Origin: an uncultured bacterium
GTDB lineage: Bacteria > Pseudomonadota > Alphaproteobacteria > UBA8366 > JADFVY01
Direction: 5' to 3'
Length of the DNA stretch: 64,000 nucleotides
Assembly (NCBI GenBank): GCA_965603635.1
Contig: CBFDDT010000002.1
Coordinates: forward strand, 6,154 to 70,153
Shown: positions 1 to 9,900 of the stretch, piece by piece
How the letters are laid out: each line of letters opens with the position of its first letter
Numbering within the stretch: position 1 is the first letter of the stretch
Program-made: the position numbers and the translations under genes
The notes under the pieces: model-generated
The model's input: only the letters and a program-made list of their open reading frames with translations
What the model was told of the DNA's origin: nothing
Database searches by the model: none

Positions 1-1464
1 GACTGGAACCTGATCTGCATGCTGTGCACGGAACTGCCGGATATGGAAAAGGGCACGGCGGTGCCGGAGAAGACAGCCGATGGCAAGGACGGCATCGCGC
101 TGACCTATACGATCCGGCCCGACGCCATATGGGGCGATGGCGTGCCGGTGACCACCAAGGACGTGCTTTTCACCTGGGAGGTCGGGCGGCATCCGAAGAC
201 CGGCGTGGCCAGTTCGGAACTGTACGAACGCATCACCTCGATCAACGCCAGGGACGACAAGACCTTCACCATGCATGTCAACAAGCGTACCTGCGATTAC
301 CAGGGCATCAACGATTTCGAGGTTCTGCCGGCCCATATCGAGTCGCCGAATTTCGCCGACCCGGCGGAATACAAGAACCGCAGCGCCTACGAAACCGACA
401 CGACAAACCCGGGCCTGTGGTTCGGCCCCTACCGGGTGACTGAGGTTTCGTCGGGTTCGCATATCGTGCTGGAGCCTAACCCGACCTGGTGGGGCGCAAA
501 ACCGCATTTCAAGCGCATCGTCGTCAAGGCGGTGGAGAATACAGCCGCGCTGACCGCCAACCTGCTGTCGGGCGACGTGGACATGATCGCCGGCGAGCTT
601 GGCCTGACGCTCGATCAGGCTCTGGCCTTCGAGAAACGCCATGGGGACAAGTTCGAAATGCTCTACAAGTCGGGGCTGATCTACGAGCATATCGACCTGA
701 ACCTGGACAATCCGATGCTGGCCGACCGGCGGGTGCGCCGCGCCCTGGTCCACGCCATCGACCGCGACGCCATCAGCCAGCAACTGTTCGACGGCAAGCA
801 GCCGCCGGCCCATGGCCAGACCAACCCGCTGGACCGGGTATATTTCGACGGCATCCCGAGATATGCATTTGACCCGAAACAGGCCGCTACCCTGCTGGAC
901 GAGGCCGGCTGGAAAGCAGGCGAGGGCGGCATTCGCCAGAACGACAAGGGCGAGCCGCTGCGAATGGAAATCATGACGACGGCCGGCAACAAGACGCGCG
1001 AACTGGTGCAACAGGTCTTGCAGAGCCAGTGGCGGCAGGTCGGCGTTGATGTTCGCATCCGCAACGAACCGCCGCGTGTTTTCTTCGGTGAGACCGTGAG
1101 CAAGCGCAAGTTCACCGCCATGGCCATGTTCGCCTGGATTTCCTCGCCCGAGAATATCCCGCGCTCGACCCTGCATTCCGACGAAATTCCGACCGAGAAA
1201 AACGGCTGGGGTGGCCAGAATAATACGGGCTTTCGCAGTGCCGAAATGGACAAGGTGATCGACGATATGGAAGTGATCTGCGAGCCGAAAGCGAACCAGG
1301 CCCTGTGGAACCAAATGCAGACGCTCTATGCCGAGGAACTGCCGGCCCTCCCTCTCTATTTCCGCGCCAATGCCTTCATTCTGCCGAAATGGCTGAAGGG
1401 GGTGACGCCCACGGGACATCAATATCCGACGAGCCTGTGGGTCGAGAACTGGACGGCGGAATAG
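1..1464 (+). CDS. ABC transporter substrate-binding protein, family 5 (peptide/nickel/opine type); 5' end cut by the window edge
   Basis: Frame 1 is open from base 1 and the listed ORF is 19..1464. The sequence is typical of SBP_bac_5 proteins (GIALTYTIRPDAIWGDGVPVTTKDVLFTWE, VLEPNPTWWG). It is followed 21 nt later by two cognate permeases. Confidence 0.85.
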   Translation, partial: DWNLICMLCTELPDMEKGTAVPEKTADGKDGIALTYTIRPDAIWGDGVPVTTKDVLFTWEVGRHPKTGVASSELYERITSINARDDKTFTMHVNKRTCDYQGINDFEVLPAHIESPNFADPAEYKNRSAYETDTTNPGLWFGPYRVTEVSSGSHIVLEPNPTWWGAKPHFKRIVVKAVENTAALTANLLSGDVDMIAGELGLTLDQALAFEKRHGDKFEMLYKSGLIYEHIDLNLDNPMLADRRVRRALVHAIDRDAISQQLFDGKQPPAHGQTNPLDRVYFDGIPRYAFDPKQAATLLDEAGWKAGEGGIRQNDKGEPLRMEIMTTAGNKTRELVQQVLQSQWRQVGVDVRIRNEPPRVFFGETVSKRKFTAMAMFAWISSPENIPRSTLHSDEIPTEKNGWGGQNNTGFRSAEMDKVIDDMEVICEPKANQALWNQMQTLYAEELPALPLYFRANAFILPKWLKGVTPTGHQYPTSLWVENWTAE

Positions 1465-1485
1465 GCGGCGCGGCCGGGACCCGCC

Positions 1486-2457
1486 ATGCTGCGCTTTGCC
1501 GTAATCCGGGTTACCGAGAGCCTGATCGTCCTGCTGCTGGTTTCCTTTGCGGTCTATGGGCTGATTGGGCTGATGCCGGGCGATCCGATTGACATCATGG
1601 TGCAGTCCGACCCGGACCTGACCCCGGCCGACGCCGCGCGGCTGAAGGCGCTATACGGGTTGGACCGCCCGATTATCGAGCGTTACGGCAACTGGCTTTC
1701 CGCCGCGATGCAGGGCGATTTCGGGAATTCGCGGGTCACCATGCGCCCCGTTATGGAAATGCTGTGGCCACGGCTCGGCAACAGCTTGTTGCTGCTGGGG
1801 ATAAGCACCCTGCTTGCGCTGGCCATCGCCATCCCGATCGGTATTTACGCGGCGGCGCGGCCTTATTCGCTGTCGGACTATCTCGTCAATCTGAGCTGTT
1901 TCGCGGGAATTTCGGTGCCGCCCTTCTGGCTGGCCCTGCTGATGATGATCCTGTTTTCAGTAACGCTGGGCTGGCTGCCGGCGGGTGGCATGGGGCCGGT
2001 CGGCGACGATTCATGGGCAGCCCGCCTGCCCTATCTCGTGCTTCCCGTGATGACGTTGACCATCGTCAGCGTCGGCGGCTTTACGCGCTTCATGCGGGCC
2101 AGCATGCTGCAGACCCTGCGCCAGGATTTCATTCGTACCGCGCGCGCCAAGGGCCTGGGCGAGACGCGGATAGTCTGGGGGCACGCCCTGCAAAGCGCGA
2201 TCATGCCGCTGGTCACGGTGCTGGGGCTTAGTTTCGGGGCGGTATTCTCGGGCGCGCTGATTACCGAGATCATGTTCGCCTGGGCCGGCATCGGCCGCAT
2301 GATCTACGATTCAATTCTGGCCAGCGACTATAACCTGGCGCTGGTCGGCCTGCTGTTCGCCACCGCCATGACGCTGGTGGGCAATCTGCTGGCCGATATC
2401 GCCTATGTCTGGCTGGACCCGCGGGTGAGTTTCCAACGTCTGGAGGCGGGCCGATGA
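1486..2457 (+). CDS. ABC transporter permease (DppB/OppB type)
   Basis: 323 aa polytopic protein with an N-terminal FAVYGLIGLMPGDP block and the EAA-type loop (FIRTARAKGLGETRIVWGHALQSA) typical of BPD_transp_1 peptide permeases. Confidence 0.9.
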   Translation: MLRFAVIRVTESLIVLLLVSFAVYGLIGLMPGDPIDIMVQSDPDLTPADAARLKALYGLDRPIIERYGNWLSAAMQGDFGNSRVTMRPVMEMLWPRLGNSLLLLGISTLLALAIAIPIGIYAAARPYSLSDYLVNLSCFAGISVPPFWLALLMMILFSVTLGWLPAGGMGPVGDDSWAARLPYLVLPVMTLTIVSVGGFTRFMRASMLQTLRQDFIRTARAKGLGETRIVWGHALQSAIMPLVTVLGLSFGAVFSGALITEIMFAWAGIGRMIYDSILASDYNLALVGLLFATAMTLVGNLLADIAYVWLDPRVSFQRLEAGR

Positions 2458-3383
2458 GCAGCGTCGCCGACACCGCGCCAAGCGGCGCCCCGCGCGGGAT
2501 TGTCGCCCGCATGGCGCGGCGGTTCATGCAGCATCGCCTGGCCCTGGCGAGTCTTATACTGCTGGTTCTTCTCGGGCTATTGGCCATCGCCGCGCCGCTG
2601 GTGGAATACGCGCTGGGTGTGGACGCCAACATGGCAAACCTGTTCGGACGCTTCGCCCCGCCGTCTTTCGAACACCCACTGGGAACGGACGAGCTGGGGC
2701 GCGACCTCTTGGTGCGGCTGCTGTACGGCGGGCGGGTTTCGCTAGCGGTGGGGCTGTCGGCGGCGGTATTCGCGGCGGTGATCGGCACCAGCCTGGGACT
2801 GCTGGCCGGTTATTTCGGCGGCCGATTTGACGCCTTCGTTATGCGCTTCACCGACGGGGTGATCGCCCTGCCGCTGCTGCCGCTGTTGATCGTGCTGGCC
2901 GCCGTCGATTTGGAGAAGGTGGGTGTGCCGGCGGAACTGGCGCAGTCCGAGGATATCAGCCTCTACCGCATCATCGTCATCGTCGCCCTGTTTGGCTGGA
3001 CCACGGTGGCCCGGCTGGTGCGGGCCGAGGCCCTGCGCATCCGCTCGCGCGAATTCGTCACCGCCGCGCGGGCCATGGGCGCCGGGCACGGGCGCATAAT
3101 GATCGCCCATATCCTGCCCAACGCAGTCTCGCCGATCATCGTCGCCACAACGATGTCAGTTGGCGGCCTCATCCTGTTTGAATCGATTCTCAGCTTCCTG
3201 GGCCTCGGCATCCAGCCGCCGGTGGCGAGCTGGGGCAACATGCTGACCAACGCGCAGGAGCTGATCTGGAACACACCGATGCTGGCGGTATGGCCGGGAC
3301 TGGCAATCTTCGTCACCGTCATCGCCTTCAACTTCCTCGGCGACGGATTGCAAGATGCGCTGGACCCGAGGGCGGTGGAGTGA
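2454..3383 (+). CDS. ABC transporter permease (DppC/OppC type)
   Basis: 309 aa. Overlaps the previous gene by 4 nt. Contains PLGTDELGRDLLVRLLYGGRVSL and the EAA loop FVTAARAMGAGHGRIMIAHILPNA. Confidence 0.9.
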   Translation: MSSVADTAPSGAPRGIVARMARRFMQHRLALASLILLVLLGLLAIAAPLVEYALGVDANMANLFGRFAPPSFEHPLGTDELGRDLLVRLLYGGRVSLAVGLSAAVFAAVIGTSLGLLAGYFGGRFDAFVMRFTDGVIALPLLPLLIVLAAVDLEKVGVPAELAQSEDISLYRIIVIVALFGWTTVARLVRAEALRIRSREFVTAARAMGAGHGRIMIAHILPNAVSPIIVATTMSVGGLILFESILSFLGLGIQPPVASWGNMLTNAQELIWNTPMLAVWPGLAIFVTVIAFNFLGDGLQDALDPRAVE

Positions 3384-3466
3384 GGGCCGGGGCCATTTCG
3401 CATCCCTGAACCGATCCTGTCGACCAAGGCTCGCCGTTGTCAATACGTCACCCCGGCCCTACACTG

Positions 3467-4270
3467 ATGCGGAACACACGCGCGATGACCATGACATATC
3501 CGGACCGAAATGACCTCCTCTGGGTGCTGGCGCTGGCGCCGCCACTGGCCGTGCGGCTGTATGGCGACGGCATGGAAGCGGCGGTGCAGCGGTTGCTGCT
3601 TCTCGCGCTCGCGCTTGGCATTACCCATGCCTGGGCTGCCCTGTTCGCCCGCCGGATGGGGCGCCCGCGGGGCCCCGGTCTGCCCGCCTTTGCCATGACA
3701 TTCGTTTTGATGCTGCCCGGGCCGGTTGCTTGGGGTGGCGCCGTTCTCGCGCTCAGCTTCGGCGCCGTCTTCGGGCGCGAGATATTCGGCGGCCGGGCGA
3801 TCCTGCCGCCAGCGCTGGTCGGCCTGGCATTCGCCATTTTCTCGTTCCCCGAGGGCGGTTTCGAGGCGCGAGGCGTCCTTGTGCTATCGCCCGATCCCTT
3901 GTTCGCAATGTCCTGCTTGCCCGGGGCGGCGTTGTTGATGTTGAGAAGCGCGCTCGCCTGGCAGGTCACCGCGGGCGCGGTGGTCGGCGCGACGGCGGCG
4001 GGATTCTTTATGGGCGATCCCGCATGGTGGGAGCATTTGGGCCTCGGCGCCTTCGCTGCCGGCGTTCTTTTCCTGGCCGCCGCGCCCGACGGCGCCGTCA
4101 CGGGAAAGGGCGCGCGATGGCTGCATGGCCTGCTGGTGGGGGCGCTGATTATCGTGATCCGCCTCGCCAACCCCGACCAGCCCGACGGGATCGTGTTCGC
4201 GGCGCTGCTGGGCGGGCTGTTCGCGCCGCTGTTGGACCGGGCGCTGAGCTGGAGGCCCCGACATGGCTAA
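3467..4270 (+). CDS. Short NqrB/RnfD-family membrane subunit (about 268 aa; lacks the N-terminal region and the flavinylation motif)
   Basis: The ORF is 3437..4270, opening with TTG at 3437. The first ATG is 3467; 3485 and 3491 are alternatives. The C-terminal block LFLAAAPDGAVTGKGARWLHGLLVGALIIVIRLANPDQPDGIVFAALLGGLFAPLLD and the central block FGAVFGREIFGGRAILPPALVGLAFAIFSFP match conserved NqrB/RnfD regions. It overlaps nqrC by 8 nt. Confidence 0.7.
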   Translation: MRNTRAMTMTYPDRNDLLWVLALAPPLAVRLYGDGMEAAVQRLLLLALALGITHAWAALFARRMGRPRGPGLPAFAMTFVLMLPGPVAWGGAVLALSFGAVFGREIFGGRAILPPALVGLAFAIFSFPEGGFEARGVLVLSPDPLFAMSCLPGAALLMLRSALAWQVTAGAVVGATAAGFFMGDPAWWEHLGLGAFAAGVLFLAAAPDGAVTGKGARWLHGLLVGALIIVIRLANPDQPDGIVFAALLGGLFAPLLDRALSWRPRHG

Positions 4271-5003
4271 CCTCAACCCGCTCGCCTGGTGGCGGGGTTT
4301 TCTGCGCCTGCCCAACGACAGCCCGGTAAAGACCGTCGGCGTGGCCCTGCTGGTGGCCCTGGCCTGTTCTCTTGTGGTCTCGGTCACGGCGGTGACGCTG
4401 CGGCCGCTGCAGGACGCCAACCGCTTGCGGGAAAGCGCGGCGAGCATGATGGACATGCTGGAGGGTCTCGGCGCCGGCGCGCCCGAGGCGCGGCTGGTGG
4501 CACTCTCCACCGGGGCCTATGTCTATCGCGACCCGGGCACGAAAACCGAACTGCCGGCCGAGCGTGACGGCGCGGGGTTGGGTGGCCGGGAGGACGTCGC
4601 CACCGTCTTCGAATTGCGCGAGGGTGGCGCCTTGCGGCTGGTGATCCTGCCGGTGCGCGGCGTTGGATATCAGTCAACGCTCAAGGGGTATCTCGCCCTG
4701 AAGGCGGACCTGAACAGCGTCGCCGCGCTGACCTTCCACGAACAGGAAGAGACCCCGGGGATGGGCGCGCGCATCGAGGAAGATGCGTGGCAGGCCCTGT
4801 GGCCAGGCAAGCAGGTGGCCGACGCCGAGGGCGTCATCCGCATCGAGGTGGTCAAGGGCGCGGGCGCGGGCGTGCACGAGGTCGACGGCATCTCGGGCGC
4901 AACGCGTACCGGCAACGGCGTCTCCAACCTGCTGCGCTTCTGGCTCGGCCCCGACGGCTACGGGCCGTATCTCGACCGGCTGAGGACGGAGACCGGACAA
5001 TGA
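4263..5003 (+). CDS. nqrC: Na+-NQR subunit C-like FMN-binding protein
   Basis: 246 aa with a single N-terminal TM helix ([20 protein letters not shown]). Carries an FMN_bind domain with the ApbE flavinylation motif [14 protein letters not shown]. Sits between the nqrB-like gene and nqrD. Confidence 0.8.
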
Positions 5004-5650
5004 GCGACCGCAGCCGGACCCTGATTGACCCGATTCTTGTATCCAATCCGGTGACGCTCCAAGTGTTGGGGATCTGCTCGGCACTGGCGGTGACGACATC
5101 GCTGTCCACCGCCCTGGTGATGAGTGCCGCGCTGACCGTCGTGCTCACTCTCTCCAGCGGTATCATCAGCCTGATCCGCAACCATATCCCCCGGTCGATC
5201 CGGCTGATCGTGCAGATCACGATTATCGCCTCGCTGGTCATCGTCGTGGACCAGCTGTTGCAGGCCTATATGTTCGCGATGAGCAAGCGCCTCAGCGTGT
5301 TCGTCGGCCTCATCGTTACCAACTGCATCGTGCTCGGCCGCGCGGAGGGTTTCGCCATGAAGAACCCGCCGGGGGCGAGCCTGCTGGACGGTTTCGGCAA
5401 TGGCATCGGTTACACCCTGATTCTGGTCGCAATGGGCATCGTGCGCGAGCTGCTGGGCGCGGGGACGCTGATGGGCGTCACCATCCTGCCGGCCGTCGCG
5501 GACGGCGGCTGGTTCACGCCGCTCGGGCTGATGGCCCTGCCACCGAGCGCGTTCTTCCTGCTTGGCCTGCTGGTGTGGGCGATCCGCGCGATCCGCCCGG
5601 AACAGGCCGAGGCGGCGCCGGACGGGAAGAGCGGGGAGGCGGGCGAATGA
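5000..5650 (+). CDS. nqrD: Na+-NQR subunit D (Rnf-Nqr family)
   Basis: The true start ATG at 5000 forms an ATGA overlap with the nqrC stop; the track ORF 4787..5650 carries an Arg-rich false extension. Contains [22 protein letters not shown] and [14 protein letters not shown] with the conserved Cys residues. Confidence 0.85.
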
Positions 5651-6249
5651 CAGAATTGCTGCTCCGCGCCATCTTCACCGACAATCTGGCGCTGGCCTAC
5701 TTCCTTGGCATGTGCACGTTCCTCGCGGTATCCCGGCGCCTCGAGACCGCGTTCGGGCTTGGCCTCGCCATGATCGTGGTCGAGACCGTCACCGTACCGG
5801 TTAACAATCTTCTGTTCACATGGTTGCTCGGGCCCGGGGCGCTGGCGTGGCTGGGGCAGGGCGACGTGGATCTGAGCTTCCTCGTGCTGATCGCATCAAT
5901 CGGCGTTATCGCGGCGACGGTGCAGATTCTCGAGATGGTACTGGATCGCCATTTCCCCCGGCTTTACCGTTCGCTGGGAATCTACCTGCCGCTGATCACC
6001 GTCAACTGCGCCATCCTCGGCGCCGGCCTGTTCATGGTCGAACGGCGCTACGATTTTTCCGAAAGCGTGGTCTACGGCTTCGGTTCGGGCCTGGGGTGGG
6101 CGCTGGCCATCTGGGCGCTGGCCGCCCTGCGCGAACGGGTCGACGAGAGCCGGGTGCCGCAGGGGCTGCGCGGCCTCGGGCTCGCCTTTATCCTGACCGG
6201 TTTCATGTCGATGGGGTTCGCCGTCTTCGGCGGGCTGGCGTTCGGGTGA
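5647..6249 (+). CDS. nqrE: Na+-NQR subunit E (Rnf-Nqr family)
   Basis: The start ATG at 5647 forms an ATGA overlap with the nqrD stop. Contains [21 protein letters not shown] and [15 protein letters not shown] with the conserved Cys residues. Confidence 0.85.
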
Positions 6250-6256
6250 GTCGGCG

Positions 6257-7474
6257 ATGATGGAGATAATTCTCGGCATCTCGGCGTTCACGGGGTTGAT
6301 CATGGCGCTGGTGTTCATCGTGCTGGGCGCCCGGGCCCTGCTGATGCCCCGGGGCCTCGCGTGCGTTACCGTGAACGGCGAACGGGTCCTGGACGCCAGC
6401 CTTGGGGAAAAACTCCTGCATGCGCTGGAACATGGCGGCGTGCGTCTGCCGACAAGCTGTGGCGGAGCCGGCACCTGCGGGCTGTGCCGGGTGACGGTGA
6501 TCGGCGCGGGCGATGTTTTGCCGATCGAGCGCGCTACCCTGGGCGAAACCGACATCGCGAACGGCGTTCGCCTTGCTTGCCAGATGGTGGTGCGCGGCGA
6601 CCTCGCGGTCACGGTCGCCCCGGAGCTGCTGGCCGCGGCAAGCTGGTTGTGCACTGTCCGGCGGACCCGCACCGTCGCGCCGCTGATCAAGGAAATCCTG
6701 CTCGCCCTGCCGGAGGGGCAGGCAAGGAGTTTCCCGGCCGGATCCTACGTGCAGGTCACTGCGCCGGCCTTTACCCTGCCGTTTTCCGAGATCGCCGTGG
6801 ACCCTGCGCATGAAGGCGCGTGGACGCATCTGGGCCTCAGGAGGCTCACCGCCCGCGGCAACGCCCCCGTGGCCCGCGCCTATTCCCTTGCCAACCACCC
6901 CGGGGAAACCGACGCGTTGCTTCTCAATATCCGCCTTGCGCTGCCGCCCGGCGGCAAGCCGGACGCCCCGCCGGGGGTGGTGTCGTCCTGGCTGTTCGGT
7001 CTCAGGGCCGGGGATACAGTTTCGGCATCGGGGCCCTTCGGCAATTTCTTCGTCATGGAGACGGACCGGGAAATGGTCCTGATTGGTGGCGGCGTCGGCA
7101 TGGCACCGCTGCGGTCCCACCTGTTCGACCAGTTGGAATACCGCAAGACCACCCGCGCCATCAGTTTCTGGTATGGCGCGCGCGGGCTTATAGATCTGTA
7201 TTACGCCGACGACATGGAGCGGCTTGCGCGCGAGCATGACAACTTTTCATGGCATGTCGCCCTGTCCGACCCCGATCCCGGCGATGCCTGGGACGGGGAA
7301 ACGGGGTTCATCCACGATGTCGTGTACCGCAATCACCTGCAGGCGCACCCCGATCCGGCGGCGTGCGAGTATTATCTTTGCGGCCCGCCCTTGATGATCG
7401 AGGCCGTGCAGGCCATGCTCGACAGGCTGGGCGTGCCGCGCGAAAACATCCTGTACGACGATTTCGGAGGCTGA
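6257..7474 (+). CDS. nqrF: Na+-NQR subunit F (2Fe-2S ferredoxin plus FAD/NADH-binding reductase)
   Basis: 405 aa. It has an N-terminal TM helix, the 2Fe-2S motif SCGGAGTCGLCRV...RLACQ, the FAD motif RAYSLANHP and the NAD motif LIGGGVGMAPLRS. Confidence 0.9.
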   Translation: MMEIILGISAFTGLIMALVFIVLGARALLMPRGLACVTVNGERVLDASLGEKLLHALEHGGVRLPTSCGGAGTCGLCRVTVIGAGDVLPIERATLGETDIANGVRLACQMVVRGDLAVTVAPELLAAASWLCTVRRTRTVAPLIKEILLALPEGQARSFPAGSYVQVTAPAFTLPFSEIAVDPAHEGAWTHLGLRRLTARGNAPVARAYSLANHPGETDALLLNIRLALPPGGKPDAPPGVVSSWLFGLRAGDTVSASGPFGNFFVMETDREMVLIGGGVGMAPLRSHLFDQLEYRKTTRAISFWYGARGLIDLYYADDMERLAREHDNFSWHVALSDPDPGDAWDGETGFIHDVVYRNHLQAHPDPAACEYYLCGPPLMIEAVQAMLDRLGVPRENILYDDFGG

Positions 7475-7477
7475 CCG

Positions 7478-8437
7478 ATGCTTACGCGAAGAAAGCTCCT
7501 GCGGCTGGCCGGTGGTACGGCGATGCTGAGCGTCTTGCCCGCGGTTGCGCGCGCGGCCGGGGTACGAGTCTACACTGGCCCCGCCTTCGGTTCGGCCTGG
7601 CGGCTCGTGCTGCCCGACACGGGCGAGGCGGCCCTGGCGCGGGCGCGGCTTGCGGCGGTCGTGGCGCGTATCGACGCCCTGATGTCGCCCTTCAGGCCGG
7701 ACTCAGAACTGGTCCGCTTCAATGTCGCGGGGGCCGCCATTGTGTCGCGCGAGACCAGCCATGTCGCGCGGGCGGCGCTGGCGCTGGCCCGGGACAGCGA
7801 CGGCGCCTTCGACCCCACCATGGCGCCGCTGGACCGGCTATATGGCTTCGGACCGCCCGCCATATCGCCCGCCCGCCCGGCGGGCCGCTATCGCGATGTA
7901 AGCATCGCCGGCAATTCGCTGGTATCCGCTCGTCCGGGATTGAGCCTCGACCTCTGTGGCATCGCTAAAGGGCATGCGCTGGACGAAATCCTGCGGGCGC
8001 TGGAAGGCCTCGATTTCCTGGTCGAATTGGGCGGCGAAGTCGCGGCCCGGGGCCGCCATCCGTCGGGACGGCCCTGGCGGGCAGGGATCGAACGGCCGGG
8101 GACGGCGGTGCTTCAACGCATCGTCGAACCCCATGCGCACGCGCTGGCCACGTCGGGTGACGCGGCGCAGGGCTATATTGTCGGTGGGCGGCGCTACGCC
8201 CATGTTCTGGACCCGCGTAGCCGGACACCGGTAGATAATGGGGTCGCCTCGGTGAGCGTACTGGCCGCGACGGGGTTGATGGCGGACGGTCTGGCAACGG
8301 CCGCGTTGGTGTTGGGCCCGCAAGACGCGCGCCCGTTGCTTAAGGCTCACGACGCCAGCGCGCTGTTCCTGATGCGCCGGTCCGGAGGGCTGGCGGAAGT
8401 GGAGTTGGGCGGGTTCATTGCAGGAGGCGCTTCATGA
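7478..8437 (+). CDS. apbE: FAD:protein FMN transferase (ApbE family), exported
   Basis: 319 aa with a twin-arginine-like signal (MLTRRKLLRLAGGTAMLSVLPAVARA). Contains ApbE blocks (AFDPTMAPL, GIAKGHALD, ALATSGD, HVLDPR). Starts 3 nt after nqrF. Confidence 0.85.
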   Translation: MLTRRKLLRLAGGTAMLSVLPAVARAAGVRVYTGPAFGSAWRLVLPDTGEAALARARLAAVVARIDALMSPFRPDSELVRFNVAGAAIVSRETSHVARAALALARDSDGAFDPTMAPLDRLYGFGPPAISPARPAGRYRDVSIAGNSLVSARPGLSLDLCGIAKGHALDEILRALEGLDFLVELGGEVAARGRHPSGRPWRAGIERPGTAVLQRIVEPHAHALATSGDAAQGYIVGGRRYAHVLDPRSRTPVDNGVASVSVLAATGLMADGLATAALVLGPQDARPLLKAHDASALFLMRRSGGLAEVELGGFIAGGAS

Positions 8438-8589
8438 CGCTGTTTTTGCTCAGTTTCGTGGTGATCGGACTGGCGATCCTCGGGCTCGGCGCGGGGGTTC
8501 TGCTCGGCCGTGCTCCGCTCAGGGGGTCGTGCGGCGGCAATGCCGTCCTCAAGTCCTGCCCCCTTTGCCGGCCCGGAGACGAGCGATGA
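8434..8589 (+). CDS. nqrM: (Na+)-NQR maturation protein NqrM (DUF539), 51 aa; not in the supplied ORF track
   Basis: My own translation is MTLFLLSFVVIGLAILGLGAGVLLGRAPLRGSCGGNAVLKSCPLCRPGDER*. It has one TM helix followed by the Cys-rich GSCGG...C..C tail typical of NqrM. It forms ATGA overlaps with the apbE stop (8434-8437) and the next gene's start (8586-8589). Confidence 0.7.
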   Translation: MTLFLLSFVVIGLAILGLGAGVLLGRAPLRGSCGGNAVLKSCPLCRPGDER

Positions 8590-8975
8590 CCCGAACCGTC
8601 GCCGACATCATGGCCACCCGGCTGGTCACCTTCACGCCCGACATGAACATTCACGAGGCCATTCGCATCCTGCTCGACAGACGGTTTTCCGGCGCGCCGG
8701 TGGTGAACGCGGACGGCGCCCTGGTCGGCGTGCTGTCCAAGAAGGACTGCCTGAAGATCGTGTTTTCATCGCAATATCATGACGACTGGGGCGGACCCGT
8801 GCGCGATTTCATGACTGCGCCCGTGGAAACCCTGGACGCGGGCATGGACCTGGTGAGCGCGGCCCAGCTCTTTCTCGGCAGCCATTTCCGCCGCTTTCCC
8901 GTGCTCCGCGACGGCAAGCTCGTTGGGCAGGTCAGCCGTTACGACATCCTCAAGGTTCTGACCGGGAAGCCCTGA
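8586..8975 (+). CDS. CBS-domain pair protein
   Basis: The true start ATG at 8586 forms an ATGA overlap with the nqrM stop. The 129-aa product has two CBS motifs (IMATRLVTFTPDMNIHEAIRILLDRRFSGAPVV; FMTAPVETLDAGMDLVSAAQLFLGSHFRRFPVL). Confidence 0.8.
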   Translation: MTRTVADIMATRLVTFTPDMNIHEAIRILLDRRFSGAPVVNADGALVGVLSKKDCLKIVFSSQYHDDWGGPVRDFMTAPVETLDAGMDLVSAAQLFLGSHFRRFPVLRDGKLVGQVSRYDILKVLTGKP

Positions 8976-9006
8976 ACCGCGGAGATTCCGATCGGATAGG
9001 TCTTTA

Positions 9007-9900
9007 TCAGCGAGCCTTGGTATGACTGCTTCCAGCCGCCTGCTGCTTCAGCCATTTCACAAAGGTCCTGACCGATCCCCTCAACGCCCCGGGGGGCGTC
9101 TGGATGTAGTATATTCCGAAAGCCTCGTCGGGAAATAATTCGATGAGCTGCCCGGACTGGATCTCCTTCTCGACCCAGGGGCGGGCGGTGTAGGTAATCC
9201 CGTCGCCCCGCCTCACCGCTTCCATGATCAGGTTCCCCGGCATATGGGAAATCATCGATGGCCGGTCGTGCGCAACACCGTGCCTGGCCAGCCAGTCCGC
9301 GACCTCACTGGTGCCCAGCTCCTGCAGCCATGGCAGCTCCACGAGCATCGCCGGTTCAGTTATCTTGCGCGTGCCGATCAGCGCAGGCGTTCCGACTATC
9401 ACCATATCGGCAACCAGGACCGCGTCTACCTCGGTCTTGGGCCCGCGGCTGTCGCGATAGCGGATTGCCAGGTCCACGCCACCGGGTTTCAGTTCGATGA
9501 TCTGCGAGGTGGGATTGAGCATCAGCGTGATATCCGGGTGCCGGGTCTGGAAATCCACCATCCTGGGCATCAGCCACATTACGGCGAAGGCCGGCGACAT
9601 CGTGACCTGCACCGGTCGCACCGCGTCCAGCCCCGTCAGGGCCTCGACACCCCGACGAATGGCGGTGAAGCCGGCCTGCAGGTCGCGCGCCAGCGCCTCG
9701 CCCTCTTCGGTCAGCGCGACACCGCGCCCGTTTCGGGCAACCAGAGCTACGCCGAGCCGGGCTTCCAACGCCTTGACCTGCTGGCTCACCGCCGCATGGC
9801 TAACGTTCAGGACTGAGCCGGCCCTGGAATAGCTCTCCGTTTCCGCGAGGGCGGCGAATGCCTTCAGGCTGTTGAGCGGGGGCAGGCTGGTCCAGTCCAT
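9007..9900 (-). CDS. LysR-family transcriptional regulator (GcvA-like)
   Basis: 297 aa with an N-terminal HTH (LNSLKAFAALAETESYSRAGSVLNVSHAAVSQQVKALE) and a LysR substrate-binding domain. Confidence 0.9.
   Translation of the reverse strand: MDWTSLPPLNSLKAFAALAETESYSRAGSVLNVSHAAVSQQVKALEARLGVALVARNGRGVALTEEGEALARDLQAGFTAIRRGVEALTGLDAVRPVQVTMSPAFAVMWLMPRMVDFQTRHPDITLMLNPTSQIIELKPGGVDLAIRYRDSRGPKTEVDAVLVADMVIVGTPALIGTRKITEPAMLVELPWLQELGTSEVADWLARHGVAHDRPSMISHMPGNLIMEAVRRGDGITYTARPWVEKEIQSGQLIELFPDEAFGIYYIQTPPGALRGSVRTFVKWLKQQAAGSSHTKAR

Follow-up and report, generated by a model that had tools for sequence, protein, structure and literature searches.

What becomes of a Na+-transporting NADH:quinone oxidoreductase (Na+-NQR) whose membrane subunit B appears to offer no place for flavins? 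The question is raised by a 64-kb stretch of DNA from an uncultured alphaproteobacterium (contig CBFDDT010000002.1), referred to below as the window, where a gene that we call nqrB' (3485-4270, + strand) codes for a short NqrB homologue of 261 amino acids (aa) at the head of an nqr operon. The original prediction for this locus was of a truncated NqrB that lacks the motif for covalent attachment of flavin mononucleotide (FMN). As judged from aligned residues, the loss goes further: besides the N-terminal arm and most of the loop with the flavinylated Thr, nqrB' lacks the side chains that bind riboflavin and the Glu157 found in the quinone/inhibitor pocket, the last two being losses that the prediction did not contain. 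The operon represents a conserved five-subunit version of NQR from uncultured Alphaproteobacteria that is so far undescribed in the open-access literature searched.

Results

A short homologue with the NqrB fold

The open reading frame (ORF) at 3437-4270 on the + strand is intact and gives 277 aa if counted from its TTG, in agreement with the 268-277 aa first proposed. The product itself, however, is most probably about 261 aa long, because homologues, which measure 259-261 aa, have their first residue where ATG 3485 or ATG 3491 would place it. A start at TTG 3437 is possible, but the N-termini of the homologues give it no support. A sigma-70-like promoter match (TTGTCA-17-TACACT, 3437-3465, +), the sole one in 3200-9100, overlaps the TTG and precedes ATG 3485 by 20 nt. 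It fits a start at that ATG, although the match is weak and only suggestive (one site versus 0.6 expected by chance). A longer upstream frame or a frameshift can be set aside, given that a gene for an ATP-binding cassette (ABC) permease ends at 3383, which leaves space neither for nqrA nor for a more extended N-terminus of NqrB. Nor does a sequencing or assembly error, which would have undone the original prediction, explain the short form, which is common to about 26 independent assemblies with different genes upstream, and no longer frame is present.

That the protein belongs with NqrB and RnfD, as first proposed, is confirmed by profile and structure comparisons, and it is nearer to NqrB than to RnfD. 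It matches Pfam PF03116 with 100.7 bits, the NCBIfam nqrB models TIGR01937 and NF003756 with 93.3 and 97.8 bits (cut-offs of 349.9 and 414, not reached) and the RnfD model TIGR01946 with 59.8 bits (cut-off of 207, not reached). In a phmmer comparison with Vibrio cholerae NqrB (PDB 7xk3_B), residues 59-139 and 158-270 in the 277-aa numbering correspond to V. cholerae 136-218 and 278-400, and the intervening V. cholerae segment 219-277, which holds Thr236, is matched by only about 18 residues. Alignments were built from 20 members of the nqrB' family and from 10 canonical NqrBs (from Vibrio, Pseudoalteromonas, Proteus, Pseudomonas, Shewanella and other loci). Profile-profile comparison with hhalign (probability 99.7) sets family residues 40-254 against V. 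cholerae 133-400. Two N-terminal helices are the only part of nqrB' that aligns to V. cholerae 1-132. The protein is indeed shorter than canonical NqrB, the difference being about 150 aa rather than the 130 aa estimated at first. An AlphaFold2 model (mean predicted local distance difference test score, pLDDT, 79.5; predicted template modelling score, pTM, 0.81) has about ten helical segments. When it was searched with Foldseek the best matches were NqrB chains (template modelling, TM, scores of 0.82-0.85), followed by RnfD (0.72-0.82); against 7xk3_B the score was 0.84 (E 2.6e-10). The modelled protein thereby keeps the helical membrane core and fold of NqrB.

Loss of the flavin and quinone sites

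In the hhalign columns, DGFSGAT of V. cholerae NqrB (residues 230-236) sits opposite GGFEARG (3854-3874, +), with Gly at the position of Thr236, after which about 30 aa are deleted. The FMN-attachment motif is absent, as had been predicted, and the profile-profile comparison reveals no conserved Thr or Ser that could be flavinylated at the loop. It has not, however, simply been replaced by another segment, as GGFEARG is a degenerate remnant of DG[FY]SGAT, recognisable by GG[FY]E and shared with sister operons. Within the nqrB' family the Thr236 position is variable, being occupied by Gly, Asp, Ser, Leu, Trp and others in the 20-sequence alignment, whereas all canonical NqrBs inspected retain the flavinylated Thr of the D-G-[FY]-[STA]-x-[APS]-T loop. 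Scans for D-x-x-[ST]-[GAS]-[AS]-[ST] and for [ST]GA[ST] in the family and in 150 representatives gave no match within the family. Two other candidates for a flavin site were rejected. The only GAT of the protein, in AVVGATAAG, had already been discounted in the original prediction, and it is not conserved across the family. The Ser of a fairly well conserved A-x-S-C motif aligns in hhalign to canonical S276/T277, which is not the site of flavinylation. In the structural model, pLDDT falls below 50 at residues 124-133.

The N-terminal half is reduced as well. About 10 residues precede the first transmembrane (TM) helix, versus about 55 in canonical NqrB, in line with the earlier remark that the protein starts almost at this helix, and the periplasmic loop between TM1 and TM2 has about 5 residues versus about 45. 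In the cryo-electron microscopy (cryo-EM) structure of the V. cholerae enzyme, NqrB Phe34-Leu53 is intertwined with NqrA Arg330-Asn379, riboflavin is hydrogen-bonded by Thr162, Asn200, Asn203 and Asp346 of NqrB, and the pocket for korormicin and aurachin, inhibitors of the quinone site, is formed by NqrB's N-terminal part and Glu157 (PMC9325719). The suggestion that the NqrB N-terminus and NqrA were lost jointly agrees with this contact, and nqrA is missing in every family locus with upstream sequence. At the positions of the riboflavin ligands nqrB' has Phe69 (T162F), Ala105 (N200A), Pro108 (N203P) and Ala200 (D346A), and these positions are similarly non-polar throughout the family. Glu157 is replaced by Pro and Glu144 by Ala, with similar residues in the rest of the family, whereas canonical NqrB and RnfD in the same alignment show E-E-T-N-N ... 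D-D nearly without exception. Equivalents of Asp397 and Phe342 are retained, as is a conserved Asp just before TM1. From the residues aligned to the former flavin sites we infer that no flavin binds nqrB'.

A conserved family under purifying selection

The short form is widespread. A search of 5.8 billion proteins returned 183 matches; among those listed there are at least 120 clusters, down to 53% identity, almost all of 259-264 aa and, where labelled, from metagenome-assembled genomes (MAGs) of Alphaproteobacteria/Rhodospirillales in which the protein is annotated as NqrB or RnfD. When 1.84 billion representatives were searched with a profile, only about six clusters at 50% identity fell within the family, and a score gap set them apart from other PF03116 proteins. 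Among GTDB species representatives about 23 genomes carry nqrB', all of them uncultured and assigned to Rhodospirillales, Thalassospiraceae and Kiloniellales, some labels being probably mis-binned. In a tblastn panel the order B'-C-D-E-F-(apbE)-(nqrM)-CBS was found in every family locus, while the genes flanking the operon differ between loci; all-against-all clustering of ORFs from 19 loci in search of a conserved partner gene gave the operon only. One Kiloniellales MAG (L005) has, about 2.4 kb upstream of its intact operon, a broken partial second short nqrB at 7145-7616, split over two frames that cover residues 1-113 and 117-160.

Across sequences down to 54% identity, 48 columns of nqrB' are invariant. 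Compared with the window, the ratio of non-synonymous to synonymous substitution rates (dN/dS) is 0.18-0.27 for nqrB', 0.10-0.22 for nqrC and 0.06-0.16 for nqrD, nqrE and nqrF; in the closest pair it is 0.45 for nqrB', a value based on small counts. nqrB' is under purifying selection and yet is the least constrained subunit. One could take this lower constraint, the ratio of 0.45 and the broken copy in the Kiloniellales MAG as signs of a decaying remnant or an artefact, be it a pseudogene or truncated annotation within an operon that is degenerating, or else a misassembly. We regard this as very improbable, as the frame is intact and of constant length in at least 120 clusters and about 26 assemblies, the invariant columns persist and dN/dS is low at larger divergence, and B' is translationally coupled to an intact nqrC.

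The five-subunit operon

The gene cluster is tightly packed and translationally coupled, most junctions being ATGA-type overlaps, and nqrB' is its first gene. A tblastn search gave no NqrA homologue for the 64-kb window or for the 26 family loci (in total 420 kb); at least 2.3 kb of upstream sequence is available for 21 of the 27 nqrB' copies (26 loci and the window). The operon contains neither rnfB nor rnfC, the neighbours of nqrB' being nqrC to nqrF. With the absence of nqrA established for the window and these loci, one could still imagine an essentially canonical Na+-NQR, with nqrA elsewhere in the genome and B' binding FMN and/or riboflavin non-covalently through other residues, that works as in Vibrio. 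The retained NqrB fold and the purifying selection on B' would be compatible with such an enzyme. Nevertheless, it seems improbable to us. B' lacks the stretch of NqrB that is intertwined with NqrA, the four riboflavin ligands and the Thr loop have been lost together and this loss is conserved, the score against the NCBIfam nqrB model is a quarter of the cut-off, and in all related operons having nqrA this gene lies directly upstream of nqrB.

Subunits C to F are of the usual kind. The nqrC gene (4263-5003, +; 246 aa), whose start overlaps the end of nqrB', matches Pfam FMN_bind and the nqrC-type models of NCBIfam, the latter slightly under the cut-off, and has an intact flavinylation motif, DGISGAT, at 4884-4904 (Thr214). 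It is followed by nqrD (5000-5650, +; 216 aa; NCBIfam NF006777, 308 bits, cut-off 235), nqrE (5647-6249, +; 200 aa; TIGR01940, 284 bits, cut-off 247.6) and nqrF (6257-7474, +; 405 aa; TIGR01941, 454 bits, cut-off 295), the product of which has a TM anchor, a 2Fe-2S ferredoxin domain and FAD/NADH domains (Pfam Fer2, FAD_binding_6 and NAD_binding_1). NqrD and NqrE are 60-63% identical to their Vibrio counterparts, with all key residues kept. The flavinylation Thr of NqrC, the four Fe-S cysteines of NqrD/E, the four 2Fe-2S cysteines of NqrF and the equivalents of NqrD-Asp133 and NqrE-Glu95 are invariant in the family, and the NqrC motif is DGISGAT in most loci, with minor variants elsewhere.

Three further genes complete the cluster. 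The first, apbE (7478-8437, +; 319 aa; Pfam ApbE, 211 bits), codes for FAD:protein FMN transferase and is present in 12 of the 19 family loci compared. A 51-aa ORF (8434-8589, +) that overlaps the apbE stop and the start of the next gene has one TM helix and a GSCGG...CPLC motif in its translation; it looks like a shortened NqrM, the Fe-S maturation factor, with a Pfam NqrM score of 16.4 bits that does not reach the cut-off of 22. It recurs in several family loci, and Vibrio NqrM was matched by tblastn in L097, L098, L100 and L104. The last gene (8586-8975, +) encodes a 129-aa CBS-pair protein (two Pfam CBS matches). All family loci reaching that far have it downstream of nqrF, of apbE or of nqrM, and so do L107, L108 and L112 (see below). 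Such a stand-alone CBS-pair protein also closes the nqr cluster in canonical alphaproteobacterial operons and in those that combine nqrA with a short NqrB, and it might act as a nucleotide-sensing regulator in this lineage of NQR. In the window, nqrB' comes directly after peptide/nickel-type ABC genes (19-3383, +) that encode a binding protein of family 5 and two permeases but do not include the usual pair of ATPase genes.

Relatives and history of the operon

Related alphaproteobacterial operons retain more of the canonical enzyme. In the Aestuariivirga locus (L107), nqrA is accompanied by a full-length NqrB that has EGYAGAT as well as the riboflavin residues, and nqrC to nqrF, apbE and the CBS gene follow. 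In six other loci, from Rhodospirillales (L108), Devosia (L111), Roseicyclus (L112), Bauldia (L115) and two further sources (L118 and L121), nqrA is followed by a short NqrB of 260-285 aa. The residues of the short NqrB could be read in all of these except L112, for which its frame was not recovered; in the other five the FMN loop is gone, and the APHVRG motif, the riboflavin residues and a FSFPxGG[FY][ED] remnant are kept. This type comprises many 50%-identity clusters (representatives including P0130, P0138 and P0154). In an enzyme of this kind, riboflavin would have to receive electrons from FMN-NqrC with no FMN-NqrB in between.

A neighbour-joining tree of concatenated NqrD, NqrE and NqrF (714 columns, 200 bootstraps, limited sampling) recovers the nqrA-less nqrB' family as monophyletic (100%) and as sister to the group with nqrA and a short NqrB (98%), with the Aestuariivirga locus outside (92%) and Gammaproteobacteria beyond. 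This suggests a stepwise reduction, in which the FMN(B) loop was lost first, whereas nqrA, what was left of the N-terminus and the riboflavin ligands went later, in the nqrB' family. The simplest history would lead from a canonical operon to one with nqrA and a short B and from there to one without nqrA and with a B devoid of cofactor sites. Apart from this series, many PF03116 proteins of 270-400 aa (P0141, P0142, P0153, P0132, P0134, P0152 and others) have no recognisable flavinylation Thr. They have Tyr/Ser at Asn200/Asn203 and keep Asp346 and Asp397, and by their sequences they look like another uncharacterised NqrB-like clade.

Discussion

Electron path

On balance we lean towards regarding the enzyme as a five-subunit NQR derivative in which B' is a redox-silent scaffold, electrons exit from FMN-NqrC and the preferred acceptor is a membrane quinone. 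The input chain would be kept, electrons passing from NADH to FAD, the 2Fe-2S cluster of NqrF, the 2Fe-2S cluster of NqrD/E and FMN-NqrC, that is, from the cytoplasmic side to the periplasmic one. The return wire from FMN-NqrB via riboflavin to quinone would no longer exist, and NqrA would be gone too. B' would still be needed, given the purifying selection on it, and it would probably serve as a membrane scaffold and as a docking surface for the swinging domain of NqrC. Electrons would then leave directly from FMN-NqrC. For the acceptor we favour a membrane quinone near the periplasmic face, because the operon is self-contained, occurs in varied contexts and has descended from quinone reductases, and the enzyme would remain a respiratory NADH dehydrogenase. 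Any Na+ pumping would fall to the fully conserved NqrD/E pair.

It could also be that the enzyme is not a quinone reductase at all but a one-way electron exporter, in which electrons from NADH would travel via FMN-NqrC and end up on a soluble acceptor in the periplasm, for instance a cytochrome c, a metal chelate or oxygen, much as in NQR/RNF-like and other ApbE-dependent systems for extracytosolic electron transfer. The disappearance of the whole quinone-side wire and pocket of B speaks for this, and there is a precedent in unidirectional NQR/RNF-like systems with an NqrB-like subunit without the Thr (PMC8238504, PMC10979944); a non-quinone acceptor has also been proposed for the nqrA-less nqrBCDEF operons of anaerobes (PMC5924567). 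However, no periplasmic redox protein is conserved beside the operon in 19 loci, and both nqrA and the riboflavin residues persist in the sister group, pointing to a continued respiratory role. The hosts, moreover, appear to be ordinary aerobic or facultative Alphaproteobacteria, which would presumably contain ubiquinone. An exporter deserves to be kept in mind as a serious contender, even if we hold it to be unlikely.

Several points weigh against the quinone-reducing scaffold enzyme that we prefer. All family members are known from MAGs, that is, from genes alone, and nqrA could be encoded elsewhere in these genomes. Lost hydrogen-bonding side chains do not prove that flavin and quinone are absent, and the hydrophobic pocket could bind something else. 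The Asp before TM1, F342 and D397 are plausible equivalents of some residues of the Na+ path in NqrB proposed by Hau et al. (2023), and B' may still conduct ions. A one-way outward electron path opposes the membrane potential unless it is compensated. Finally, no conserved neighbour gene in the 19 loci suggests an acceptor.

Ion pumping

The site of ion pumping in Na+-NQR and Rnf is currently disputed, and the nqrB' enzyme offers a direct test. In the view of Hau et al. (2023) the Na+ channel lies in NqrB and has FMN(B) as its gate (PMC10643135), whereas Ishikawa-Fukuda et al. (2026), from structural work and molecular dynamics simulations, attribute pumping exclusively to NqrD/E (PMC12901251); Kumar et al. 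(2025), as cited in the latter paper, likewise place it in NqrD/E (RnfA/E). A conserved D/E pair beside a degenerate B would be easier to reconcile with pumping centred on NqrD/E, and if the nqrB' enzyme still pumps Na+, the flavins of B are not needed for it. One may go further and picture a natural 'half-NQR', without NqrA and with a B free of any redox cofactor, in which electrons cross the membrane once and exit from FMN-NqrC while NqrD/E still pump Na+. This combined proposal is tentative, and we would sooner doubt than assert it. If true, it would constitute a natural experiment indicating that NQR/RNF pumping can do without the flavins of subunit B, and it would establish NADH-driven electron output towards the periplasm as a new class in aerobic Alphaproteobacteria. 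The locus further suggests that the output side of NQR can change in evolution. For metabolic reconstructions of these MAGs, labels such as 'Na+-transporting NADH:ubiquinone oxidoreductase subunit B' or 'RnfD' overstate what can be concluded.

Comparison with known systems

With canonical NqrB, as represented by the V. cholerae protein (7xk3 chain B), nqrB' shares the motifs (K/R)E(I/V)FGG, RxxNP and APLxD and the operon position directly before nqrC-D-E-F-apbE-nqrM. It differs in being about 150 aa shorter and in having neither the N-terminal arm nor the flavinylated Thr nor the riboflavin ligands. Compared with the six-gene nqrABCDEF Na+-NQR, the operon has subunits C, D, E and F in canonical form, whereas nqrA was not found at the family loci.

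The closest relatives are the alphaproteobacterial operons with nqrA and a short NqrB, which share the deletion of the FMN loop, the FSFPxGG[FY][ED] remnant, an NqrB of 260-285 aa and the downstream CBS gene. They keep nqrA, APHVRG before TM1, the riboflavin residues (T, N, N/H, D) and an Arg-rich C-terminus, all of which the nqrB' family has lost. No description of alphaproteobacterial short-NqrB operons, with or without nqrA, was found in the open-access literature.

Operons with nqrBCDEF and without nqrA have been noted in Clostridium ultunense, Pseudothermotoga lettingae, P. thermarum and Alkaliphilus metalliredigens, their function being uncharacterised (PMC5924567), and the order B-C-D-E-F without nqrA is common to them and to the operon studied here. 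The same order, again with no match to nqrA, is seen in a Fusibacter locus (L110), to which the relationship is only distant (NqrF 32% identical). NqrBs of this type, however, are about 300-330 aa long and keep the Thr loop (DTLASAT in Fusibacter) and N-F-x-N-P. The nqrA loss in the anaerobe operons is therefore an independent one, in which the flavin sites did not disappear as well; a separate origin of the nqrB' family within alphaproteobacterial NQR is indicated because both the tree and the sequence identities set it apart from the anaerobe operons.

RnfD (7zc6_D, 9eri_D and 8rbq_D) has the same fold and a similarly short N-terminus, but its cofactors are covalent FMN and riboflavin and its partners RnfC and RnfB, whereas the nqrB' operon has nqrF instead and nqrB' has no Thr motif. 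The loss of the Thr has a parallel in the two-subunit NQR/RNF-like systems (Meheust et al. 2021, PMC8238504; Huang et al. 2024, PMC10979944), in which an NqrB/RnfD-like protein without the Thr is likewise paired with a flavinylated NqrC/RnfG-like partner and for which unidirectional electron flow has been proposed. In these systems the PF03116 domain is fused to a C-terminal PF00175 NAD-binding domain and encoded next to an FMN_bind protein (PMC8238504), and NqrD, NqrE and NqrF are absent. The nqrB' operon differs from them in that B' is unfused, consisting of PF03116 only, PF00175 resides in a separate NqrF, and the full module of NqrF, NqrD/E and NqrC is present.

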